Assembly (NCBI GenBank): GCA_964609395.1
Contig: CAZSRU010000001.1
Coordinates: 7,324 to 71,323 of the forward strand
Direction: 5' to 3'
DNA from: an uncultured Victivallales bacterium
Lineage (GTDB): Bacteria > Verrucomicrobiota > Kiritimatiellia > UBA8416
Length of the DNA stretch: 64,000 bases
Below are positions 9,481 through 59,815 of this stretch, piece after piece. The notes beneath the pieces are model-generated. The model ran no database searches. It was not told where the DNA came from and was given only the letters and a program-made list of their open reading frames with translations. How positions within the stretch are numbered: the stretch's first letter is position 1; the number at the start of each line of letters is the position of its first letter. Position numbers and translations under genes: made by a program.

Positions 9481-10617
9481 ATGGAAGGCAAAGACGGCAA
9501 AAGCGAGAAAGCGACCAGTAAGCGGCGCTCTGAGCAGCGTGATAAAGGCAATCTGGCCGTATCGCAGGAAATCATCACTGTGGCTGTATTGTTCCTAACG
9601 GTGATCCTGCTCCGCCAGGGATTCCCTTCCTATCTGGCTGGAACACGCCGTATGCTTGAAGTCAGTTGCCTGGCGATGAGTGCCGATGACGCGTGGAGCG
9701 GAATTTGGTTGCAACAGCAATACTGGCACGGGCTCGGAGCTGTCTTGCGTGTTATCGCGCCACTCGTGGGCGGAATCCTGCTGGCGGGGATTATCGGCAG
9801 CGTCGGCCAGACGGGCCCCTTTTTCAGTTGGGAGGCCTTTCAGGCTGGCGGCCTCAAGGCGCTTGACCCGATCAAGGGGGCCAAGCGATTATTCTCGTTC
9901 AAATCGGTGACCAAACTGCTGATGACGCTGGCGAAAATCGGATTGATTGCGGGCGTCATGACCCTTATGTGGCGACGCAAGTGGAATACCGTTGCCCAGT
10001 TGCACGATTTTGACTTGAGTTCGGCTGTCGGCTGGGTGGGACATAACCTCTATACGACGGTCATGGTGATTATCGTGTTGGCGATCTGCATTGCCGTCGT
10101 GGATTTCGTGATCACCTACCGTCGGCATGAGAAAAGCATGATGATGTCCAAGCAGGAGGTCAAGGACGAGCGCAAACAGTACGAAATGAAGCCCGAGGTC
10201 AAACGGGCGCAATTTCGTAAGATGCGGTCATTGACCATTTCCAGGATGGTGGCGGAAGTACCTAAAGCGACCGTGATCATTACAAACCCGACTCGGGTGG
10301 CGGTGGCGATCAAGTATAATCCCGCCGAGATGGAGGCGCCACAGGTTGTCGCCAAAGGCCTGCGCATCCGGGCCAAGCGCATTCGCGAACTGGCGGCAAA
10401 GCACGGGATCCCGATCGTGGAGCGCCCGCCGCTGGCACGCGCCTTGTATCGGTCTGTGCCGACGGGACGCTCTATCCCCGCCGGGCTGTTCGAGGGCGTT
10501 GCGGAAGTGCTTGCGTATCTGCATCGGTTAGGGTACCGGCTGGAAGGGATTGCGGGTCAGAAGGTGTCGACGGGAAATGCCGTCGAGCAGGAAGGATATA
10601 GGGCGCCATGGCTTTAA
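9481..10617 (+). CDS. flhB: Flagellar export switch protein FlhB
   Basis: 378 aa; four TM segments; autocleavage site NPTR/NPTH-like (VIITNPTRVAVAIKYN); C-terminal cytoplasmic domain. Confidence 0.9.
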   Translation: MEGKDGKSEKATSKRRSEQRDKGNLAVSQEIITVAVLFLTVILLRQGFPSYLAGTRRMLEVSCLAMSADDAWSGIWLQQQYWHGLGAVLRVIAPLVGGILLAGIIGSVGQTGPFFSWEAFQAGGLKALDPIKGAKRLFSFKSVTKLLMTLAKIGLIAGVMTLMWRRKWNTVAQLHDFDLSSAVGWVGHNLYTTVMVIIVLAICIAVVDFVITYRRHEKSMMMSKQEVKDERKQYEMKPEVKRAQFRKMRSLTISRMVAEVPKATVIITNPTRVAVAIKYNPAEMEAPQVVAKGLRIRAKRIRELAAKHGIPIVERPPLARALYRSVPTGRSIPAGLFEGVAEVLAYLHRLGYRLEGIAGQKVSTGNAVEQEGYRAPWL

Positions 10618-12707
10618 AGGATTTTAGGCATTCCGATTTGCTGGTGGCCGCGGCGATGATCCTGATCTTGTCCGTGCTGATTCTCCCGATTCCGACACCA
10701 CTGCTGGATGTGATGCTCGTGCTGAGTATCGCCATGGGGGCGCTCGTTCTATTTATCACGCTTCAGTTGAAGGATGCCCTTCAGCTTTCCTCATTCCCTT
10801 CCATGCTGCTGATGCTGACGCTTTTCCGGCTGGCTCTCAATGTTGCCACCACACGCCAGATTCTGCTCACGGGTTTTGCTGGCAACGTGATCCAGTCGTT
10901 TGGCGATTTCGTGGTGGGTGGCAACTATGTTGTCGGTGTGGTTATCTTCCTGATCCTGGTGCTTGTGAATTTCATGGTGATCACCAAGGGAGCGGGGCGC
11001 ATCGCCGAGGTGGCAGCCCGGTTTACGCTGGATGCTATGCCAGGCAAGCAAATGAGTATCGATGCCGATCTGAATGCCGGGCTGATTGATGAAGCGACAG
11101 CCCTGCGTCGTCGCGAGGGGCTTTCCAGCGAGGCTGATTTCTACGGGGCGATGGATGGTGCCAGCAAGTTTGTCAAAGGCGATGCGGTGGCCGGCCTCGT
11201 CATTACCGCCATCAATATCGCTGGCGGTTTTGCGATCGGCATGATGCAGCAGGGTATGGGTGCGATCGAGGCCTTGCAGAAATATACACTCCTGACGGTG
11301 GGTGATGGCCTTGTCTCGCAGATTCCCGCGTTGGTGATCTCGACGGCAGCCGGCATGCTGGTGACACGCGCCGCTTCGGATCAAAGCCTGGGCGAGGACA
11401 TCAAATCGCAGCTTTTCATGCGCCCCAAGCCTCTGTATGCGACGGCGGGAATGCTCGGTGCCATGGCGCTGGTGCCGGGGCTGCCGTTCATGCCGTTTAT
11501 GCTGCTGGCGATGACGATGGGCGGCATCGGGTATTCGCTACGCAAGTTGCCGCCGCCGTCGGAAACCACATCTGCGCCGGGGGGGGCAAAGAAAAAGGCG
11601 CTGCCGGGGAGTGACGAGGCGAAAGCATTGCCCATGAGTCGCCCGGCGGATATCCCGGATGTAAGCGCGATGGATGTTGAAATCGGCTTTGGTCTGGTTC
11701 CTCTGGTTGACCGCGGCCAGGGAGGCACGTTGCTGGATCGGATTACCACGATCCGGCATCAGATGGCCGAAGACCTCGGGTTCATTCTCCCTCCCGTGAA
11801 TGTGCATGATAACGCCAGGTTGCGCAATACGGAGTATGCGATCCGTGTCCGTGGTCTGGAGGTTGCGCGTGGTATCCTGCAGCCGCAGCAGTGGTTGGCA
11901 GTCGATGCCACTGGCGATGTGCATTTTGAAGGCCCGGCACCGGTTAAGGAACCGACCTTCGGATTCCGGGCGTGGTGGGTGAGCGCCGCGCAACGCGAAC
12001 TGGCCGAGGCTCGAGGAATGACGGTTGTGGATGCCAGCGGTGTGCTCAGTACGCATCTGGCTGAGACGATTCGCCGCCATGCCGGGGAGCTGCTGGGGCG
12101 GCAGGATGTCAGCGAGATGATTGATAATGTCAAACAGAAGCATGCGTCGGTTGTGCAGGAGTTGATCCCGGCCCGACTCAGTATCGGTGTCGTACATCGC
12201 GTGCTTCAGTATTTGCTGCGTGAACGCGTTTCGGTTCGCGATCTTGCCTTGATCCTGGAAACCCTTTCTGATCATGCTGCCAAAACGCAGGATCCGGTGA
12301 TTCTTGGCGAACTGTGCCGCCGCTCCCTTGGTGGTCATATTGTGGGGGCCTATCTTGAGGCTGGCAACCGACTTCCCGCCATCGCGCTGCACCCGGAGCT
12401 TGAATCCGCGATGCAAAGCGCGATTCATCGCGAGAACGGTGACTTGGGCGTATTGGCTTTACCTCCGGTGCAGGTGCAGGCTATTCTGAAAAGCGTTGAA
12501 ACCATTCTTCAGGCGGCTCGCAAAAAGAATCGCCATCCGGTAATGGTGGCACTTCCGGTTTTACGGCGGCATATCCGTCGATTAATCGAAGCGCAGGAGC
12601 GAGATCTGGCTGTGCTTTCATTTGTGGAAATACCGGATTTTGTTGATATTGATGTTATCGGGTTGATCAAGACGCCTTCGGGGCAAGCAGGCAAGGGAGA
12701 TGCGTGA
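10608..12707 (+). CDS. flhA: Flagellar export apparatus protein FlhA
   Basis: 699 aa; conserved TM core, FHIPEx-like loop and large C-terminal cytoplasmic domain. Confidence 0.95.
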   Translation: MALKDFRHSDLLVAAAMILILSVLILPIPTPLLDVMLVLSIAMGALVLFITLQLKDALQLSSFPSMLLMLTLFRLALNVATTRQILLTGFAGNVIQSFGDFVVGGNYVVGVVIFLILVLVNFMVITKGAGRIAEVAARFTLDAMPGKQMSIDADLNAGLIDEATALRRREGLSSEADFYGAMDGASKFVKGDAVAGLVITAINIAGGFAIGMMQQGMGAIEALQKYTLLTVGDGLVSQIPALVISTAAGMLVTRAASDQSLGEDIKSQLFMRPKPLYATAGMLGAMALVPGLPFMPFMLLAMTMGGIGYSLRKLPPPSETTSAPGGAKKKALPGSDEAKALPMSRPADIPDVSAMDVEIGFGLVPLVDRGQGGTLLDRITTIRHQMAEDLGFILPPVNVHDNARLRNTEYAIRVRGLEVARGILQPQQWLAVDATGDVHFEGPAPVKEPTFGFRAWWVSAAQRELAEARGMTVVDASGVLSTHLAETIRRHAGELLGRQDVSEMIDNVKQKHASVVQELIPARLSIGVVHRVLQYLLRERVSVRDLALILETLSDHAAKTQDPVILGELCRRSLGGHIVGAYLEAGNRLPAIALHPELESAMQSAIHRENGDLGVLALPPVQVQAILKSVETILQAARKKNRHPVMVALPVLRRHIRRLIEAQERDLAVLSFVEIPDFVDIDVIGLIKTPSGQAGKGDA

Positions 12708-19792: not shown

Positions 19793-20305
19793 TTATTGGA
19801 TTAGAAATTCACTGAAGACCACTTCCAGCACCGTCCCAATGGCTCGGTCGCTTAACATCGCGTTTATCTCGGTCGCGATATCGCGTTTCAGCGTTTCTCG
19901 GTCTTCCTGCGATTCAAGTTGTTCAAGGGTGCGCCGCCCGGCAGCGGAAATGACGCGATCCTGGACGACCGGTTCGATAGACCTCAGGTATTCCTCGACC
20001 TTTGTATCGCTCAGGACCAGGTGTGCCTCCAGGCGAAGCACCCGCGTCATCCGTGTCCCGGCTACATTCACGGTAATCGACTTGACGGGCAGTCTTACGG
20101 GGGTAGCCGCCGCCTCCCGATCTGCCTTTGGCACTTTTGGCTCGCGTGGCGCCAGTGTTGTGCGCACAACCATGTAACTGGCTGCCGGGGCGATCAGCAT
20201 GACTGCCAGCCCAAAGATCACGACAAACAGATTGCTGTTTTTTCGCCTAGCTTTGGTGCCCTCGGCTTGATCTGCAACATCATCGTTAGTCTCAGCCATG
20301 ATCAT
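19793..20305 (-). CDS. fliL: Flagellar basal body-associated protein FliL
   Basis: Single TM (LFVVIFGLAVMLIAPAAS) then periplasmic FliL domain; sits between motB and fliM. Confidence 0.8.
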   Translation of the reverse strand: MIMAETNDDVADQAEGTKARRKNSNLFVVIFGLAVMLIAPAASYMVVRTTLAPREPKVPKADREAAATPVRLPVKSITVNVAGTRMTRVLRLEAHLVLSDTKVEEYLRSIEPVVQDRVISAAGRRTLEQLESQEDRETLKRDIATEINAMLSDRAIGTVLEVVFSEFLIQ

Positions 20306-21050
20306 TTTCTCCCGTACTACTGGGGCGAGGTAAGTCGCCCTCCTTGTTTCTGGCACGCTTCAGCAAGAATGTCACTTGCGGAGGGGGGCCATCGTGTCCA
20401 TCGTCAAGCATTCGGCAAAACCCAACAGCACGTATCCGATCGGTAGGAATAGGCCCTTTTACAATCAGATGTCTAGACAACCAGGCGGCACGCTGTGCTG
20501 CCAGTTTGCGATCGGCGGCAGGATTCCCCGTGTCGCCCCGGACTTCGATTACGATCCGATACTTTTTCATTGAATACAGCAGTGTCGCTGCCTGGTCAAG
20601 CGCGAATTGCGTATCACGGGTTACGCTCACGCGTCCGGGGTCAAACCGGATCTTTGAATAGATGCGTAAAGACTGTCTCGCATCCTCGAAATCGAAGCTC
20701 TTCACGTCGGCATCACTGAGCGTGAAACCATCGCGTTCACCATGTTTGTAGCCGACAAGCATGGCATCCTTGTTGTCTTCATTTGTATCCATGGTGCTTG
20801 CCGGCAGGGCTCTTATCGATCGCCAGAACTCCAATACGCCCGTGCCGCCGGCAATGCCGCCAAGGTTGCGGATCTTGCCTACGCCTTTCTTGTACTGGGA
20901 TGAGCGATTCTGCCCAAGGGATAGCATGATGATAAAAAAGGCCAGCAGAATCGTCATTAAAGAGGCAAATTGCCCCATATAGGCAGGAGCCTCAACGACC
21001 TTTGGGGGTTCTGGCGGATTTCTTTTCATTGCCATATCCCGGTCGGCCAT
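20292..21050 (-). CDS. MotB paralog with a full OmpA-like peptidoglycan-binding domain but lacking the conserved TM aspartate
   Basis: TM helix AYMGQFASLMTILLAFFII (Ser in place of the MotB proton-binding Asp); C-terminal OmpA motif (RKLAAQRAAWLSRHLI). Confidence 0.7.
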   Translation of the reverse strand: MADRDMAMKRNPPEPPKVVEAPAYMGQFASLMTILLAFFIIMLSLGQNRSSQYKKGVGKIRNLGGIAGGTGVLEFWRSIRALPASTMDTNEDNKDAMLVGYKHGERDGFTLSDADVKSFDFEDARQSLRIYSKIRFDPGRVSVTRDTQFALDQAATLLYSMKKYRIVIEVRGDTGNPAADRKLAAQRAAWLSRHLIVKGPIPTDRIRAVGFCRMLDDGHDGPPPQVTFLLKRARNKEGDLPRPSSTGENDHG

Positions 21051-21817
21051 TTATCGATGGTTCGCAGATCCGTCACCTTTCTCTCTCCCAGAATGGTGAT
21101 GAGTACTGCCTCCGTATTGGCCGTGCCATCCGTGCCGGCGATCTGCACACCCGTTCCGAAACGCTGTATATCGGCCTTCATGGCCGTTTGCATGGCGCCG
21201 GCCACGCTCTCGGCGCGTTCCACGCCCAGCCCCCATACTGAGCGAGATGTTTCGGAGTTGACGACCGTCTGCTGTGCAAGGACCGCCGTGATGAGAATGT
21301 CGTTGTCGTGACCGGCGAGCAATTTTGCAATGCCCTCCCATAGTCGATTTTCTTTCGGGTTCTCCCAATCTGCCGTTCCTTGAATGAACAGCGATTTGGT
21401 TTGCAGGATGATGGTGAGACCGTCTTCAATCATGCGGATGAGCACCCGGTCTGGCAAACCGTCGGGGTTGGTATTGCTGCTGGCACGGATTTCGACGATC
21501 ATCTGCGGCACCATTTCTGCCATTTCCTCGAGCGTCAGGAATCGGAGCGTCTGCTCTTCCCCCGGGGTTTGAGACAAGCCGTCGGCGTCCACTATCGGTG
21601 TGTCCTCCCTGATTAGAAACGGCTCTAATTGCTCGACCCCGCCGAGTGCGCCGCGCATGGCTCCGATCATGGGAGACAGTTTCTCGCTCTCCATGTCAGA
21701 AAAGGCAATCAGCATGACAAAGAAACAAACCAGAAGGGACATGCAGTCCCCGAAAGTCATCATCCATGCAGGACATCCCTTGGGCTTCGAAGAAGGTGGT
21801 GCTGCGCTACGTTTCAT
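21026..21817 (-). CDS. motB: Flagellar stator protein MotB (Asp-containing TM plug region; degenerate C-terminal PG-binding domain)
   Basis: PAWMMTFGDCMSLLVCFFVML matches MotB TM with the conserved Asp; follows motA. Confidence 0.8.
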   Translation of the reverse strand: MKRSAAPPSSKPKGCPAWMMTFGDCMSLLVCFFVMLIAFSDMESEKLSPMIGAMRGALGGVEQLEPFLIREDTPIVDADGLSQTPGEEQTLRFLTLEEMAEMVPQMIVEIRASSNTNPDGLPDRVLIRMIEDGLTIILQTKSLFIQGTADWENPKENRLWEGIAKLLAGHDNDILITAVLAQQTVVNSETSRSVWGLGVERAESVAGAMQTAMKADIQRFGTGVQIAGTDGTANTEAVLITILGERKVTDLRTIDKWPTGIWQ

Positions 21818-22578
21818 TCCGTTTCCGTAAGGGCGCGCAGGGCAGGCGGCATGTAGCTGCGCAACTTCTCTTGTGCCACACGCGGGCTGTCTCCCTGCTG
21901 GATCGAGAGGATTCCCTGCAGGACCATGCGCCGGATCGCGGCTTCCTCTTTTGTACGCTGTTCCAGTTTTCCCGCAATCGGCAAGGCGATCATATTCGCG
22001 ACCATGGCGCCGTACATCGTAGTGAGCAGGGCAACGGACATTCCCATTCCGATACTGCTCGGGTCATCAAGGTTGCGCAGCATTTGGATCAGGCCGATCA
22101 ACGTGCCGATCATGCCAAATGCTGGCGCATAGGACGCGATCGCCTGAAAAATGGCGTGACCAACCGCGTGACGCTCAAGCATCGAATCAATGTCTTGCGC
22201 GAGAACGGCCTCAATGATTTCCGCCGAGTTTCCGTCCACCCCCATCTGCAAGCCTTTTTTCAAGAACGGGTCAGTCAATGTCTCGACATCGCTTTCCAAG
22301 CCAAGTATGCCATCTCGCCGTGCCCGGACCGCGAAATCGGATAGCTGCTTGAACAGAGCTAATGAGTCCTTCTGGCTATTCATGAATGCTTTACGGACGA
22401 CGCCAAAAGTACCGATGATTTTCTTGGCAGGGAAATTCATGAGCGTGGCCGCGAATGCTCCGCCGACGGTGAGCATGATCGACGGAACGTCAATGAACCC
22501 CGATCCACCTCCCATAAGGATTGCACTGATCACCAGTACAAGTCCGAGTATGATTCCGATGATTGTTCCGATGTCCAT
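21814..22578 (-). CDS. motA: Flagellar stator protein MotA
   Basis: 254 aa four-TM MotA/TolQ/ExbB family; conserved C-terminal TM3-4 (GMIGTLIGLIQML). Confidence 0.9.
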   Translation of the reverse strand: MDIGTIIGIILGLVLVISAILMGGGSGFIDVPSIMLTVGGAFAATLMNFPAKKIIGTFGVVRKAFMNSQKDSLALFKQLSDFAVRARRDGILGLESDVETLTDPFLKKGLQMGVDGNSAEIIEAVLAQDIDSMLERHAVGHAIFQAIASYAPAFGMIGTLIGLIQMLRNLDDPSSIGMGMSVALLTTMYGAMVANMIALPIAGKLEQRTKEEAAIRRMVLQGILSIQQGDSPRVAQEKLRSYMPPALRALTETE

Positions 22579-22583
22579 GGTTC

Positions 22584-22817
22584 CTATTCCTTCTCATCCG
22601 CGGGCGGGGGCTCGGTTAACCATGCCGTTGGCCGCGAACAACCTGTACGTATACGGAATGCCACAATACGTTCGACCACCTCATCCGGGGTCTCCGAGAC
22701 AAACAACCGGTGGCCGTTAATGAAAACGAGCTGTGTATCCGGCGTGATCTCGATCCGTTCAAGTAGGTCGGGATTCACGTAACAAACGCGCCCATGCAGG
22801 TCCGAACAGGTTATCAT
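22584..22817 (-). CDS. flbD: Flagellar protein FlbD
   Basis: 77 aa; CYVNPDLLERIEITPDTQLVFINGHRLFVSETPDEVVERI matches the FlbD family; located flgE-flbD-motA as in Bacillus and spirochetes. Confidence 0.8.
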   Translation of the reverse strand: MITCSDLHGRVCYVNPDLLERIEITPDTQLVFINGHRLFVSETPDEVVERIVAFRIRTGCSRPTAWLTEPPPADEKE

Positions 22818-22898: not shown

Positions 22899-23747
22899 CT
22901 AACGTTTCAATGTTAATAATTCCTGCAGCATTTCGTCCGAAGTGGATATGGTTCGCGAATTGGCCTGGAATCCACGCTGCGTGACGATCATGTCGGTGAA
23001 TTCCTGTGCCAAGTCGACGTTGGAATTCTCGATATAACCCTGAAGGATCTGGCCGATTCCGTCGCCGCCCGGATTGGCAAATGGGCGGATCGTTGCAGCA
23101 TCAGTGGCTGTGTAAAGATTGCTGCCGACGGCCTGCAATCCATTCGGGTTGTCAAACTCGGCTACGGCAACGCGTCCTGCCACCTGTGCCTCCGCTCCGG
23201 CGACCGATACGTACAAGGTACCGTCCAGGGCGATGTTGAATGAGGACGTGTTGGGTGGCAGAACGATGTCCCCGAGAGCAGCCTGTGTCAGCCCGGTCAT
23301 GTCGGGCGCGGGGTCGCCAAGATTTGCCGTCATGACGCCTTGCAGCCGTTTGCCGTCGGGATTGACGAGAAAGGACTGACCGGCATCGACATCAAGCGTA
23401 AAATCGCCAGCACGCGTGAAACGCTGCTGATTCGCCGCGCCGCCAACATCATTGACAACAAAGAACCCATTGCCGGATAGGCCGAGATTTGTTGAAATAC
23501 CCGTTTGCATCAGAGCTCCACCACCGAAGTCACGGCTGATGGCGCTGAGCTGGGTCCCGAGGCCAACCTGCATGCCCGGCGATCCCGGCGATGCCCCCCG
23601 CAGGGTGGTCACATATGCTTCCTTGAATGTGACGTTGCTTTGCTTGTAGCCGGTGGTGTTGACATTAGCTATATCGTTGCCAATCACGTTCATGCGAATC
23701 TGATGGGTTTTCAACCCTGAAATGCCACTGGACATTGACGGGATCAT
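22899..23747 (-). CDS. flgE: Flagellar hook protein FlgE (short form)
   Basis: Rod/hook N-terminal (SGLKTHQIRMNVIGNDIANVNTTGYK) and C-terminal (TDMIVTQRGFQANSRTI) domains; follows flgD. Confidence 0.8.
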   Translation of the reverse strand: MIPSMSSGISGLKTHQIRMNVIGNDIANVNTTGYKQSNVTFKEAYVTTLRGASPGSPGMQVGLGTQLSAISRDFGGGALMQTGISTNLGLSGNGFFVVNDVGGAANQQRFTRAGDFTLDVDAGQSFLVNPDGKRLQGVMTANLGDPAPDMTGLTQAALGDIVLPPNTSSFNIALDGTLYVSVAGAEAQVAGRVAVAEFDNPNGLQAVGSNLYTATDAATIRPFANPGGDGIGQILQGYIENSNVDLAQEFTDMIVTQRGFQANSRTISTSDEMLQELLTLKR

Positions 23748-24389: not shown

Positions 24390-25802
24390 TTAGGCTACCC
24401 AGCGATTACGTTCCCAGGATGCCAGGCGTCTTGCCGGTGCCGGGGATGCTGCGAGTTGTGGTGGCTGGACATGCAGTCGTCCAAATGTGTTGGGTGTGTC
24501 AGCGTTTTGCTGGTCGGTTGGCCGCCCGTCCCTGTCCTGGCAGGAAACGGAAAACTGCCCTACCTGCACACCTTGTGATGCGAGGGATGCCCGAAGATCG
24601 GCTTCTTGCCCCACGAGTAGGGCGTGAACGGCCTCGCCTTGCACGGAAAGTTCAATTGACAGGCCTCCGGGCGTCTCCTTGCATTGAAGGACGAGTTTGC
24701 CCAATGCCGCCGGTTCGAGCTCAATCCGTAGCCGCTGGTCGTCGGAGCGCATCGTTCGTAGCGTCAGATGATCGAACTGTTCGATAAAACGCTTGATGTC
24801 CATCGTCGCGGCCGGTGACTCCAGCGCGGTTGGTGTGGGGGATGGGGATACGCGAGCGGCGCTATCCGTTTGCAGCGTGTTCGCCGCAGCCGTCAATGAA
24901 TTTGTCGCGTCGCCTTCAGGGATGCCGGGTTGAGGCCTAAGTGCCGCGTGTTTCCCGGGCGACTGTTGGTTGTTGTCTCGCTCTTCGCGTTGCGGGTCGT
25001 CTGGCATGCCGGCAGGTAGTGACGCCACCAGCTCTGCCCGTGCGTCAGGGGCTTCTGTTGCCACGGGGGGCGCGGATGGTGGCAGTGGCTGCGCTTTCGT
25101 CTCGTCTTGGCTAGGCTCCGTTGCCGCCTGTGATGGCGGTATGGAAACAGGCGGGGCGTCTGTGGCAATGCCGATCGGATCGATTGGCGTGGTGTCCGTC
25201 TGATCGGTCTGATCCGTCCGATCCGTCTGATCGGCCTGCTCCGTCTGCCCGGTCAGATCCGTCTGATCGGCCTGTTCCGTCTGCCCGGTCTGATCCGTCC
25301 GATCCGTCAGATTGGTCTGCCCCGGCTGGCCTGGTTCCGTCATCACGAGCGTTTCCGGGAGTGCTGGCCCCGTTGGCTGCCCCACCGTTGCCGAGGGCGC
25401 ATCCGCTATGCGCTCAGTCTCGCCAGCATCTGTCGGCGTATGGCCGGTATAGGCAAAGAAAGCGACCGATACCCAATCGATATGTGCCTCGTCAATCCCG
25501 GGATGTGCCTCGTCAATCTCGTGAACCGTATCTGCCGTCTCTGTTTCGGGTGCTATTGCCGGCAATCCGCTCCGCGCTGATTCCTCGGTCTGGTCTTGCG
25601 TTTCAGTCTGGGTATATGCTTCGAGCTGCGCTGCAAAGCAGCCACTTTCAAATGCCGATTGGCGCGTCCTGTCATTCCCTTCCCGTCTTGTGGCAGGCTG
25701 GCTTTGGCTGTCTGGCGCGTCCTCTCGCCATACACATTCGTGTTCCTTTGACTGGCGGGAGTCGCGTGCTTTTGAAGCCAGGATGATATCGATGGTGTTC
25801 AT
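24390..25802 (-). CDS. fliK: Hook-length control protein FliK (with acidic tandem-repeat linker)
   Basis: C-terminal FliK domain (LRIELEPAALGKLVLQCK...LSIELSVQGEAVHALL); long Pro/Gln/Thr/Asp low-complexity region. Confidence 0.8.
   Translation of the reverse strand: MNTIDIILASKARDSRQSKEHECVWREDAPDSQSQPATRREGNDRTRQSAFESGCFAAQLEAYTQTETQDQTEESARSGLPAIAPETETADTVHEIDEAHPGIDEAHIDWVSVAFFAYTGHTPTDAGETERIADAPSATVGQPTGPALPETLVMTEPGQPGQTNLTDRTDQTGQTEQADQTDLTGQTEQADQTDRTDQTDQTDTTPIDPIGIATDAPPVSIPPSQAATEPSQDETKAQPLPPSAPPVATEAPDARAELVASLPAGMPDDPQREERDNNQQSPGKHAALRPQPGIPEGDATNSLTAAANTLQTDSAARVSPSPTPTALESPAATMDIKRFIEQFDHLTLRTMRSDDQRLRIELEPAALGKLVLQCKETPGGLSIELSVQGEAVHALLVGQEADLRASLASQGVQVGQFSVSCQDRDGRPTDQQNADTPNTFGRLHVQPPQLAASPAPARRLASWERNRWVA
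25190..25330. repeat. In-frame tandem repeat inside fliK (6-nt and ~40-nt periodicity; encodes QTDQTD/QTEQADQTD repeats)
   Basis: Visible repeats gatccgtctgatcggcctg(c/t)tccgtctgcccggtc duplicated. Confidence 0.7.
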
Positions 25803-26431
25803 TGTTGTCTTGCCTGATTACTGCTGGTGCCAGCCTTCTCGTCTTTCTGTTTACGAATGAGATCACTCCAGGCTACAGCATGTTCGATGCCATTGTCGCC
25901 CAGCGCGACGGCGGCATCCATAATGGCCCCCGCCTGGCGGTCTGCCAGATTGTATAGAATGCGTGCCGCCTGATCATTTTCCATTTCAGTAAGCAGTCTG
26001 GCGGCATTCTGTGCATCCATTTTGGCGTAGAATTCAGCCAGTTTCCGGGTATTTATCTTCTCTGCTTCATCAAAGGCCTTGAAATGCTTCTCCAGCGCTT
26101 GCTCAGCCGATGTAAGCTCATCGCGCATCCGCTGTAATAGAATTTCCTCCTGGCGGACACGGGCCTCACGATTGTCGAGTTGCTCTTTTTGCCGATTCAT
26201 TGCCTCCTGACGGGCACGAATTTCCTCCAGCAGAACGTCGACCGCCTGGCTTTGTTCGGAAAATATGCTTGATCGCGAGTCGCGAGATTGAGCCTTTGCG
26301 GCCTCTTCCACGTCGGGGTCGGTTTTCGAGGAATCCGCGTCAGCGCTCAGGCGTCCTGTTGCGTAGATGGTTGCGAGCATGCTTAGGGCGGCGGCGCAGA
26401 GCATGCAAACAAAAACAAACAGACCTTTCAT
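25799..26431 (-). CDS. MgtE-N-like flagellar protein (YlxF/FlbB-position protein between fliJ and fliK)
   Basis: Signal/TM N-terminus, coiled coil, C-terminal motif ARLLTEMENDQAARILYNLADRQAGAIMDA typical of the MgtE_N/MotE family. Confidence 0.6.
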   Translation of the reverse strand: MKGLFVFVCMLCAAALSMLATIYATGRLSADADSSKTDPDVEEAAKAQSRDSRSSIFSEQSQAVDVLLEEIRARQEAMNRQKEQLDNREARVRQEEILLQRMRDELTSAEQALEKHFKAFDEAEKINTRKLAEFYAKMDAQNAARLLTEMENDQAARILYNLADRQAGAIMDAAVALGDNGIEHAVAWSDLIRKQKDEKAGTSSNQARQQ

Positions 26432-58351: not shown

Positions 58352-58357
58352 CCCATT

Positions 58358-59815
58358 ATGACACAACCTATCCATGATAGCTGGACCATTGCCCGAAGTG
58401 CGATCCTGACGCATCAGCACCGACTGGCTGTGACGGCTAACAATATCGCGAATGTTGATACCCCCGGCTATTCCCGCCGGACGGTAAGGCTCGGGACCGC
58501 ACCGGAAACCCTGAGTGCGCTGACGCAGACGCGAACCTGGTCTAACGGGGCTGGCGTTCAGGTGTTGGATATTGTTCGTGCATCGAATCAAATGAAAAGC
58601 AATATGCTGCGCCAGCAGTTGTCCGATACGTCAGGGCACCATACCCGCGCCGATGCCCTGGGCAGTCTGGAGTCGCTGATGCGGGAGGATGGCGACAGCG
58701 CACTCGGGGTTCGTCTGGATGCCTTCTGGAATGCGTGGTCTGATCTATCGAATCAGGCGGATAATGTCGGTTTCCGGAGTGTGGTGATCCAGCGAGGCAA
58801 CGAGTTGGCCAGTCATTTGCGTTCGCTTAGTAGTCGTATCGACCGATTTGAGGGCCAGATTATCGGAGGCGCTCCCGGCAATTATACCGGGCAGTTGGCA
58901 AGTGATGTAGACTCATTCAACCGGATGACGACAGAGCTACAGGATTTGAACCGGCAGATCAGTTACGCCTCATCGAGCTTCGACCCCAACTCGCTGATTG
59001 ACCGTCGCGACGTGCTGTTGCGCGAAATCAGTGCGTTTGCAAATGTCACTGTGGGTTCTGACTTTTCCGTGACGCTCGATGGTCAGGCGGTTGTTTCCGG
59101 CGATGGTACGGTTCGTTCCGAACTCGAAATCACCGACGCGGGTCCGCCGCCTCTCTTTGCCCTCGATGGGACGGCGGTCACGCTTTCCTCCGGTCATATC
59201 GGTGCCTGGGTTGATGTGTTGGGAATCTCGACGGTGATGAGCGATCGGCTTGACCTGCTTGCTGTTGATCTGGCCGATGCAGTCAACCGTATCCATAATA
59301 GTGATCTCAATCCTGCTGGCGACAGTTACGATCTTACCGGGCAGCGGTGCGATTGGAATTTCTTTACGGCGACATCGGCTGCCGATATCGCGGTCAACAC
59401 GATCATTTACGATCCGGCAAACCCGATGCAGATGAACCCCGGGTTAATAGCCGCCGCCGGTAGCTTTTATGATGATGGGCTAGGGGTGACAGGGCCGAAT
59501 ACGGGCGACGGTGCTCGTGCACTCCAGATTGCCGAACTTGCCGATGCCACCCGTAGCGCACTCAATGAGCAGGGTTTTGGTGCCTTTCATGTCACGGGGC
59601 TGACGCTGCTCGGCAGCATTATTTCCACCGAACGAACGCTGGGGGATAACGGCGATGCCATTATCGGGGCCATTGAGGATGACCTTCAGTCCGAGATTGG
59701 CGTCAATCTTGATGAAGAGCTAATGGATATGATGTCGGCGCAGCGGGCGTTCCAGGCGGGGGCCAGGCTGCTGCAAACGGTGGATGAAATGCTGCAGACC
59801 ATTTTGAAATTTTAA
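58358..59815 (+). CDS. flgK: Flagellar hook-associated protein 1 FlgK
   Basis: N-terminal rod/hook motif LAVTANNIANVDTPGYSRR; C-terminus MMSAQRAFQAGARLLQTVDEML. Confidence 0.9.
   Translation: MTQPIHDSWTIARSAILTHQHRLAVTANNIANVDTPGYSRRTVRLGTAPETLSALTQTRTWSNGAGVQVLDIVRASNQMKSNMLRQQLSDTSGHHTRADALGSLESLMREDGDSALGVRLDAFWNAWSDLSNQADNVGFRSVVIQRGNELASHLRSLSSRIDRFEGQIIGGAPGNYTGQLASDVDSFNRMTTELQDLNRQISYASSSFDPNSLIDRRDVLLREISAFANVTVGSDFSVTLDGQAVVSGDGTVRSELEITDAGPPPLFALDGTAVTLSSGHIGAWVDVLGISTVMSDRLDLLAVDLADAVNRIHNSDLNPAGDSYDLTGQRCDWNFFTATSAADIAVNTIIYDPANPMQMNPGLIAAAGSFYDDGLGVTGPNTGDGARALQIAELADATRSALNEQGFGAFHVTGLTLLGSIISTERTLGDNGDAIIGAIEDDLQSEIGVNLDEELMDMMSAQRAFQAGARLLQTVDEMLQTILKF

Follow-up and report, generated by a model that had tools for sequence, protein, structure and literature searches.

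Tandem MotB paralogs beside a single motA in a Victivallales flagellar operon: a possible stator with two different axle subunits and one channel aspartate

Introduction

What use does a flagellar motor have for a second MotB that lacks the channel aspartate? The transmembrane (TM) aspartate of MotB and PomB (E. coli D32, PomB D24), and likewise that of ExbD and TolR, is regarded as the residue on which ion coupling in 5:2 rotary motors depends, and in current mechanisms the Asp pair of the axle dimer alternates its protonation, driving each 36-degree step. A stretch of 64,000 nucleotides from an uncultured Victivallales bacterium (NCBI GenBank assembly GCA_964609395.1, contig CAZSRU010000001.1, positions 7,324 to 71,323 of the forward strand; hereafter the window) carries a complete flagellar cluster, in which a long minus-strand operon holds one motA gene, two motB-like genes, here called motB1 and motB2, and fliL. 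Only the first of the two MotB proteins has the aspartate. We see an even chance that MotB1 and MotB2 are two different axle subunits of one obligate MotA5:MotB1:MotB2 stator with a single ion-binding carboxylate.

Results

Two MotB paralogs and one channel aspartate

The genes at the center of the analysis are the following (aa, amino acids).

21814..22578, minus strand: motA, 254 aa, Pfam MotA_ExbB 107.8 bits; the sole MotA/PomA-type gene of the window
21026..21817, minus strand: motB1, 263 aa, Asp-bearing MotB/PomB-like stator B subunit, MotB_plug 50.2 bits
20292..21029, minus strand: motB2, 245 aa from M8, MotB paralog without the channel Asp, MotB_plug 31.3 bits
19793..20299, minus strand: fliL, 168 aa, overlapping the end of motB2 by 8 nucleotides (nt), Pfam FliL 59.7 bits

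A preliminary description, made from the letters of the DNA, had reported two adjacent, overlapping MotB-like open reading frames (ORFs) here, with the TM Asp in the first and Ser at the proton-channel position of the second. All of this held on alignment to Vibrio alginolyticus PomB D24, and both products pass the Pfam MotB_plug (PF13677) cut-off of 24 bits, so the resemblance is not accidental. ATGA overlaps link motA to motB1 and motB1 to motB2, and the overlap of 8 nt follows between motB2 and fliL. The start of motB2 is likely M8 of the 252-aa ORF (position 21029, 245 aa) and not the ATG at 21050, and it is this start that produces the ATGA overlap with the motB1 stop; gene calls made independently on the matching 120.5-kb JGI metagenome contig gave 263 aa for MotB1, 245 aa for MotB2 and 168 aa for FliL, with a MotB2 identical to the one described here. 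No further motA or motB, and no second stator set, was found across the 64-kb window.

Homology searches gathered 73 MotB2-type and 57 MotB1-type proteins, many of them sharing contigs, of which 71 and 55, respectively, were aligned; structures were predicted with AlphaFold2 on the family alignments, with confidence given as the predicted local distance difference test (pLDDT). For MotB1 the relevant features are these (PG, peptidoglycan).

21746..21748, minus strand: codon of MotB1 Asp24, the ion-coupling carboxylate, in MTFGDCMSL, aligned to V. alginolyticus PomB D24
21644..21775, minus strand: MotB1 TM helix and plug helix, residues 15-58, AlphaFold2 helices H17-40 and H44-57
21089..21538, minus strand: MotB1 periplasmic MotB-C-type domain, residues 94-243, helix alpha1 and OmpA-like core with a degenerate PG motif

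MotB1 belongs to the MotB/PomB family. Its closest solved relative is PomB (E 8e-16), Asp24 is present in all 55 aligned family members, and conservation is highest in the TM/plug region, where the mean top-residue frequency reaches 0.93 in the TM helix and 0.65 in the plug. The C-terminal domain is confidently predicted (pLDDT about 90-97), and a Foldseek search with this domain and the long helix that precedes it placed Salmonella MotB-C (2zov) best at E 1e-9, with Vibrio PomBc (3wpw), B. subtilis MotS and H. pylori MotB among the other top matches, over 145-165 columns. The Asp and Arg of the PG-binding motif, which we scored as GHTD ... N.xLS.xRA, bind diaminopimelic acid. In MotB1 the GHTD equivalent is A-V-(L)-A-Q, so the Asp of the motif is lost, as is its Asn, and Arg201 is kept in 52/55 relatives; Pfam OmpA (cut-off 27.2 bits) finds no match in the protein. 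The C-terminal domain had been called degenerate, which fits the PG motif, with its GHTD replaced, its Arg201 retained and no Pfam OmpA match, but not the fold, which is predicted at pLDDT >90. Apart from a canonical PG motif, MotB1 appears to lack nothing that a functioning B subunit requires.

MotB2 has the corresponding parts in altered form.

20961..20963, minus strand: codon of MotB2 Ser23 (Ser30 of the 252-aa ORF) at the channel-Asp position, in GQFASLMTI, aligned to PomB D24
20913..20993, minus strand: MotB2 TM helix, residues 13-39, motif GAPAYMxQ[YF][TA][AS]LMTILLAFFI, AlphaFold2 helix H17-47 at pLDDT 90-94
20805..20912, minus strand: MotB2 glycine-rich, family-specific segment after the TM helix, residues 40-75, with G49, G51, N55, G61, G62, G64 and F68-W69-R70
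20355..20675, minus strand: MotB2 compact OmpA/Pal-like domain, residues 119-225, pLDDT 93-97

Across the MotB2 family the channel-Asp column holds Ala in 40, Ser in 30, Gly in one and Asp in none of the 71 sequences; Asp is thus absent from one of the two window genes and from the whole aligned MotB2 family, and is universal in the aligned MotB1 family. The TM helix nevertheless retains the general MotB consensus LMTxLLAFF, and nine of its residues are invariant (A14, P15, Y17, M18, L24, M25, L29, F31 and F32). Conservation of MotB2 peaks there, with a mean top-residue frequency of 0.85 against 0.40-0.47 for linker and domain. In the glycine-rich segment G51 and G62 are invariant and G49, G61 and G64 are present in at least 90% of the family; residues 50-61 are modelled with low confidence, and AlphaFold2 predicts no canonical plug helix. 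There is no acidic residue in residues 14-39. With no acidic residue available, and with no shared chemistry among the residues that take the place of the Asp, MotB2 is predicted to be unable to bind a coupling ion in its TM helix. Two ways around this were considered and rejected. Ser does not qualify as an alternative ion ligand, as Ala is commoner than Ser at the position and Gly, Thr, Ile, Val, Met and Asn are also found; and a compensating acidic residue is present neither in MotB2 residues 14-39 nor, judged by eye in the PomA alignment, as an extra residue in TM3 or TM4 of MotA. MotB2 is a MotB paralog that fails the family-defining Asp test and is not an ordinary MotB, though it probably works in a MotB-type stator.

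The periplasmic domain of MotB2 had been described as a canonical OmpA domain, which the scores do not bear out: Pfam OmpA gives 25.3 bits, under its cut-off of 27.2, and although the window protein has both D166 and R180 of the PG motif, D166 recurs in only 20/71 family members (R180 in 68/71). Its best Foldseek matches are the C-domains of OprF, OmpA and Pal (E 5e-8 to 1e-6, 108-126 columns), with MotS and H. pylori MotB ranking lower.

Set against each other, the two families are clearly homologous and clearly different. Their profiles align over the full length (HHalign probability 98.1%, E 9.6e-14, 17% identity), the linker from TM helix to domain is about 80 aa in each, and both C-termini are confident OmpA-like folds, resembling MotB/PomB periplasmic domains in MotB1 and Pal/OmpA in MotB2. 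The TM helices differ (CPAWMMTFGDCMSLLVCFF in MotB1 versus APAYMGQFASLMTILLAFF in MotB2), with Asp in one only; both are predicted by AlphaFold2 at pLDDT 80-94, and in both families they are the most conserved region (0.93 and 0.85, with linkers and domains at 0.3-0.5). A Pfam OmpA annotation accompanies 24/73 MotB2 relatives and 2/57 MotB1 relatives. Neither protein reaches the cut-off of an NCBIfam equivalog (MotB, MotD, MotS, PomB); the best NCBIfam model, NF006508 for a MotB subfamily, gives 88.6 bits for MotB1 and 34 bits for MotB2 against a cut-off of 259. Pfam ExbD/TolR (PF02472) has no match in either protein at E up to 0.1. In the source records genes of both types are annotated as 'MotB', 'OmpA family protein' or 'hypothetical'.

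A complete PomA-like MotA

The single MotA of the window matches V. alginolyticus PomA along its whole length (E 1.8e-58) and retains the equivalents of PomA R88, E96, P151, T158, T185/T186 and P199, that is, the rotor-contact Arg and Glu, both Pro and the Thr residues. It is a complete PomA-like protein with all PomA catalytic and rotor-contact residues. The equivalents of Thr158, Thr185 and Thr186 sit in GMIGTL and LLTT, and in PomA these three residues form the Na+ site of Vibrio PomAB. The stator may accordingly be sodium-driven, given a PomA-type Thr triad in MotA and a MotB1 that is closest to PomB among solved structures.

An ancient pair kept together

A scan of genomes, with one genome per species, gave 27 loci, from Verrucomicrobiota/Kiritimatiellae, Lentisphaeria/Victivallales, a metagenome-assembled genome (MAG) labelled Lentisphaera araneosa, Candidatus Scalindua and other Planctomycetota (anammox), and MAGs labelled Dehalococcoidia and Fermentibacteria. 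The order motA-motB1(Asp)-motB2(non-Asp) is found in 27/27, followed in most by fliL-fliM-fliN, and the longer order flbD-motA-motB1-motB2-fliL-fliM-fliN is kept in most related loci. With the window included, MotB2 is non-Asp (S, A, G or I) in 28/28 loci, and MotB1 has Asp wherever its N-terminus is present. In 15/26 loci motB1 runs into motB2 with an overlap of 1-8 nt between stop and start, and in the rest, with one exception, the two lie within 46 nt of each other. No locus with motB1 and without motB2 occurs among the loci examined, and motB2 has an unbroken ORF in each of the 27 genome loci as well as in those metagenome loci that were examined, which answers the concern that it might be a pseudogene in relatives.

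In a neighbor-joining tree rooted on E. coli MotB, the B1 and B2 clades are reciprocally monophyletic and branch as mirror images of each other, which points to a single early duplication whose two products were then inherited together. Searching 1.84 billion cluster representatives with a profile returned 67 clusters (50% identity) at E up to 1e-30, with ordinary Asp-bearing MotBs starting at about E 1e-22; of the 135 representatives not listed before, 61 resemble MotB2 and have A, S, T, G, I, V, M or N where the Asp would be. Another search brought in 77 more relatives of MotB2, mostly from Scalindua and Brocadiales, with A in 53, S in 22, G in one and D in one. The order motA-motB1(Asp)-motB2(non-Asp) also returns in divergent members, with Val at the Asp column in an Omnitrophota MAG (locus L033), Ala in L034, Ile in L035 and Asn in L036.

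At three loci the module motA-motB1-motB2 stands alone, with no fliL, fliM or fliN after it: L018 (4388-6714, Verrucomicrobiota MAG), L019 (4474-6720, the MAG labelled Lentisphaera araneosa) and L035 (1888-4256, metagenome contig), the last with no flagellar neighbors at all. In these modules Ile takes the place of the Asp in MotB2, and the TM helices of the two MotBs have diverged in parallel; a second flbD-motA pair is present in L018 at 10325-11797. The stand-alone modules may drive something other than a flagellum. The pairs in the MAGs labelled Dehalococcoidia and Candidatus Fermentibacteria (L003 and L007) are of the type found in the Planctomycetes-Verrucomicrobia-Chlamydiae (PVC) superphylum and lie on short contigs (4-6 kb), and their labels could reflect mis-binning or lateral transfer.

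Pairs with aspartate in both genes

A minority of the proteins in the motB2 slot still bear Asp (L030/L031, L032, L038 and L039, and probably L037), and these group with the MotB2s in an expanded neighbor-joining tree. Gene order is motA-motB1-motB2-fliL in L030, L032, L038 and L039.

Tandem MotB pairs with Asp in both genes: L030, 2353-3853; L032, 3258-4738; L038, 2240-3738; L039, 2199-3726

Each of these pairs combines one partner that has a canonical PG motif (GHTD...LSxxRA) with one whose motif is degenerate, in an order that varies by locus: in L039 the motif is degenerate in B1 and canonical in B2, and in L038 the reverse holds. The wider family, together with the INTERMEDIATE states, forms a series from pairs with Asp and OmpA in both members to the state of the window. 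Since orthologs in the motB2 slot can bear Asp, the protein of that slot would be expected to occupy a channel position.

The same loci show other changes. Two fliL paralogs stand in tandem directly after motB2 in L032 (4768-5824) and L039 (3714-4818), so that stator-associated genes are duplicated again in these lineages. In L030, which is Lentisphaerae-like and AT-rich (31% GC), a nucleotidyltransferase gene (NTP_transf_2/Polbeta family, 110 aa; 1817-2149) is inserted between motA and motB1.

Genomic setting

The operon runs, on the minus strand, in the order fliF, fliG, (fliH), fliI, fliJ, an MgtE_N-like gene, fliK, flgD, a short flgE-like gene, flbD, motA, motB1, motB2, fliL, fliM, fliN. 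The genes flhF, flhG and fliA lie upstream of it on the plus strand, and a cheY/cheX pair is nearby on the minus strand.

22584..22817, minus strand: flbD, directly upstream of motA, Pfam FlbD 64.8 bits

Several neighbors deserve mention in their own right. The short flgE-like gene between flgD and flbD (22899-23747, minus strand) encodes 282 aa with rod N, D1 and C domains only and without D2, and recurs in related loci (280-282 aa as called on L029, L032 and L039); a longer FlgE-like ORF of ~487 aa lies at 58352-59812 on the plus strand of the window. Between fliJ and fliK lies a gene (25799-26431, minus strand) for a 210-aa protein whose N-terminus is signal/TM-like and part of which weakly resembles MgtE_N/FliG_C (22.7 bits, under the cut-off), and L038 has an MgtE_N-annotated gene at the matching position. 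Within fliK (24390-25802, minus strand) a 9-nt/36-nt tandem repeat at 25195-25322 gives the central part of the FliK hook-length ruler a repeat rich in T, D and Q (…TDRTDQTGQTEQADQTDL…), and the length of the ruler could vary through it.

Discussion

A stator with two different axle subunits would account for these observations as follows. MotB1 would supply the sole ion-binding carboxylate, the canonical plug helix and a MotB-type periplasmic domain, and MotB2 would fill the second axle position without conducting, bringing its Pal/OmpA-like domain and the conserved glycine-rich segment. Ions would then enter through one of the two half-channels, and, as speculation, about 5 rather than 10 ions would pass per MotA turn if coupling is tight. 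The redundancy of a heterodimer would permit complementary decay of one Asp and of parts of the PG-binding motifs. Both proteins share the MotB TM/plug module, and their OmpA-like periplasmic domains would reach about equally far. An obligate heteromer seems the most economical reading because there is a single motA, the two motB genes are translationally coupled, no locus has one gene only, and the motifs have decayed in a complementary way. The preliminary description had proposed a split or specialised stator with complementary features, of which the ancient, co-inherited paralogs beside a single motA and the restriction of Asp to MotB1 stand, and the C-terminal domains complement each other less clearly than it had claimed.

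The placing of MotB2 determines much of the argument. It could instead lie outside the MotA pore, as an accessory membrane-anchored, PG-associated scaffold that positions or stabilises the stator in the manner of MotY/MotX, MotC or FliL partners. Such a role would suit a periplasmic domain nearer to Pal/OmpA than to MotB-C, the loss of the channel Asp, a gene that adjoins fliL, and a Gly-rich family segment in place of a clear plug helix. Simple anchors, however, do not conserve their TM helix as MotB2 does, where it is the most conserved part and keeps LMTxLLAFF; orthologs in the same slot keep the channel Asp; no match of MotB2 to a MotY-type family was found at E up to 0.1; and poor conservation of the PG-binding Asp would be odd for a dedicated anchor. 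We hold this quite improbable, and the accessory anchor like MotY or MotC that had been suggested for this gene is disfavored on the same grounds. The strongest constraint on MotB2 falling in its TM helix suggests a helix packed inside the MotA ring rather than a simple membrane anchor, and since slot relatives can also carry Asp, MotB2 would sit in the MotA pore and not be a free anchor.

If MotB2 does enter MotA rings, it might do so in units of its own: MotA5:MotB1(2) would work, and MotA5:MotB2(2) would be a non-conducting spacer, brake, clutch or regulated reserve at the rotor. The strongly conserved MotB2 TM/plug module would be expected under this arrangement, a TM helix without carboxylate would make the homodimer ion-dead, and canonical MotB is homodimeric in the MotAB and PomAB structures that have been solved. 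Dead units that compete with working ones for places at the rotor should be costly, and yet motB2 is coupled to motB1 in a core operon everywhere examined and no locus has motB1 without it; PG motifs that have decayed in complementary fashion would be difficult to account for were the proteins to act singly, and the Pfam search found no regulatory domain in MotB2. We therefore regard this as unlikely. That motB2 is a functionless duplicate in decay is scarcely credible: a residue deemed essential for MotB has been lost and the OmpA score is below threshold, but an intact ORF in 27/27 genome loci and in the metagenome loci examined, 67 clusters at E up to 1e-30, and nine invariant TM positions among relatives that are otherwise about 24-64% identical led us to discard pseudogene decay.

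Several points weigh against the MotA5:MotB1:MotB2 heteromer. Substitutions of E. coli MotB D32 are dominant-negative, which suggests that a single-Asp unit would not be trivially functional. We infer the presence of both proteins in one MotA ring from TM conservation and gene coupling only, and adjacency with translational coupling would also suit two homodimeric complexes that are separate and produced at equal levels. The phylogeny rests on simple neighbor joining with few outgroups, and most loci come from uncultured organisms in which motility itself is unobserved. Current models, moreover, need alternating protonation of two Asp (bioRxiv 10.64898/2026.04.14.718414).

With somewhat less than even confidence we would extend the heteromer to a general statement, that an asymmetric 5:1:1 single-Asp stator drives the flagella of PVC bacteria (Verrucomicrobiota/Kiritimatiellae, Lentisphaerae, Omnitrophota and anammox Planctomycetota) and that the Asp of the second subunit was lost more than once from an ancestral pair with Asp in both. 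If true, a 5:2-type motor turns on one carboxylate, contrary to models with two alternating Asp, and the ion cost per revolution is halved. A superphylum that retains, in its core flagellar operon, another axle-type subunit whose Asp position is filled by Ala, Ser, Gly, Ile or the like is a natural experiment on a residue considered indispensable. Should the heteromer exist, how a one-carboxylate axle rotates, what its ion-to-rotation stoichiometry is, and whether one PG-binding site suffices become questions, and the relatives, some with Asp in both genes, some with Asn in one and some with a second gene that lacks Asp, offer an evolutionary series for ancestral reconstruction and chimeras. 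Current annotations hide the distinction between MotB1 and MotB2.

Comparison with known systems

The canonical stator, MotA5MotB2 or PomA5PomB2 (V. alginolyticus PomAB 8BRD/8BRI, C. sporogenes 6YSF, B. subtilis 6YSL), resembles the window in a full-length PomA-like MotA, in a PomB-like MotB1 with Asp24, plug helix and MotB-C fold, and in a flagellar operon of the spirochaete/Firmicute-type order flgE-flbD-motA-motB-fliL-fliM-fliN. It differs in that a divergent, Asp-less second MotB is always present here and the PG motif of MotB1 is degenerate; unlike the canonical axle, the axle here is probably heteromeric, with a single carboxylate. MotY, which has an OmpA-like domain, aids stator assembly, and neither MotY nor MotC, both of them periplasmic, is known to have the MotB TM/plug module. 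MotB2 is like MotY/MotX (the T-ring) and MotC in its Pal/OmpA-like domain and unlike them in having the MotB TM/plug module as its most conserved part.

No account of a flagellar MotB paralog lacking the Asp, or of tandem MotBs in PVC bacteria, turned up in the full-text literature searched, which omits most subscription journals, and three systems are instructive as partial parallels. The motA-motB1-motB2 operon of Aquifex aeolicus likewise has one motA and then two motB genes that differ in their periplasmic regions; there the N-terminal/TM regions are 97% identical, with Gly/Ser at residue 20 as the sole difference, and each MotB TM region is functional with MotA as a chimera (PMC4525482), whereas the MotB TM helices of the window are strongly divergent and Asp is in one only. 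Closer in taxonomy, PVC genomes contain tolQ-like genes with pairs of heterologous tolR-like genes (PMC12204202), so that paired, non-identical B-type subunits beside one A-type gene are found in the same superphylum; unlike the stator genes described here, these encode Tol/Ton-like force transducers with vWA proteins, lie outside flagellar operons, and lack the MotB_plug/OmpA architecture. The gliding motor AglR-AglQ-AglS of Myxococcus xanthus also combines one MotA/TolQ-like pentamer gene with two different B-type genes, and AlphaFold predicts, though this is unproven, an AglR5-AglQ-AglS complex with a heterodimeric axle (PMC9389320, PMC11761067). AglQ and AglS are non-flagellar members of the TolR/ExbD family, unlike MotB1 and MotB2, and the likeness is an architectural analogy only; as such, the predicted AglQ-AglS axle provides a precedent for a heteromeric stator axle of the kind that MotB1 and MotB2 may form.

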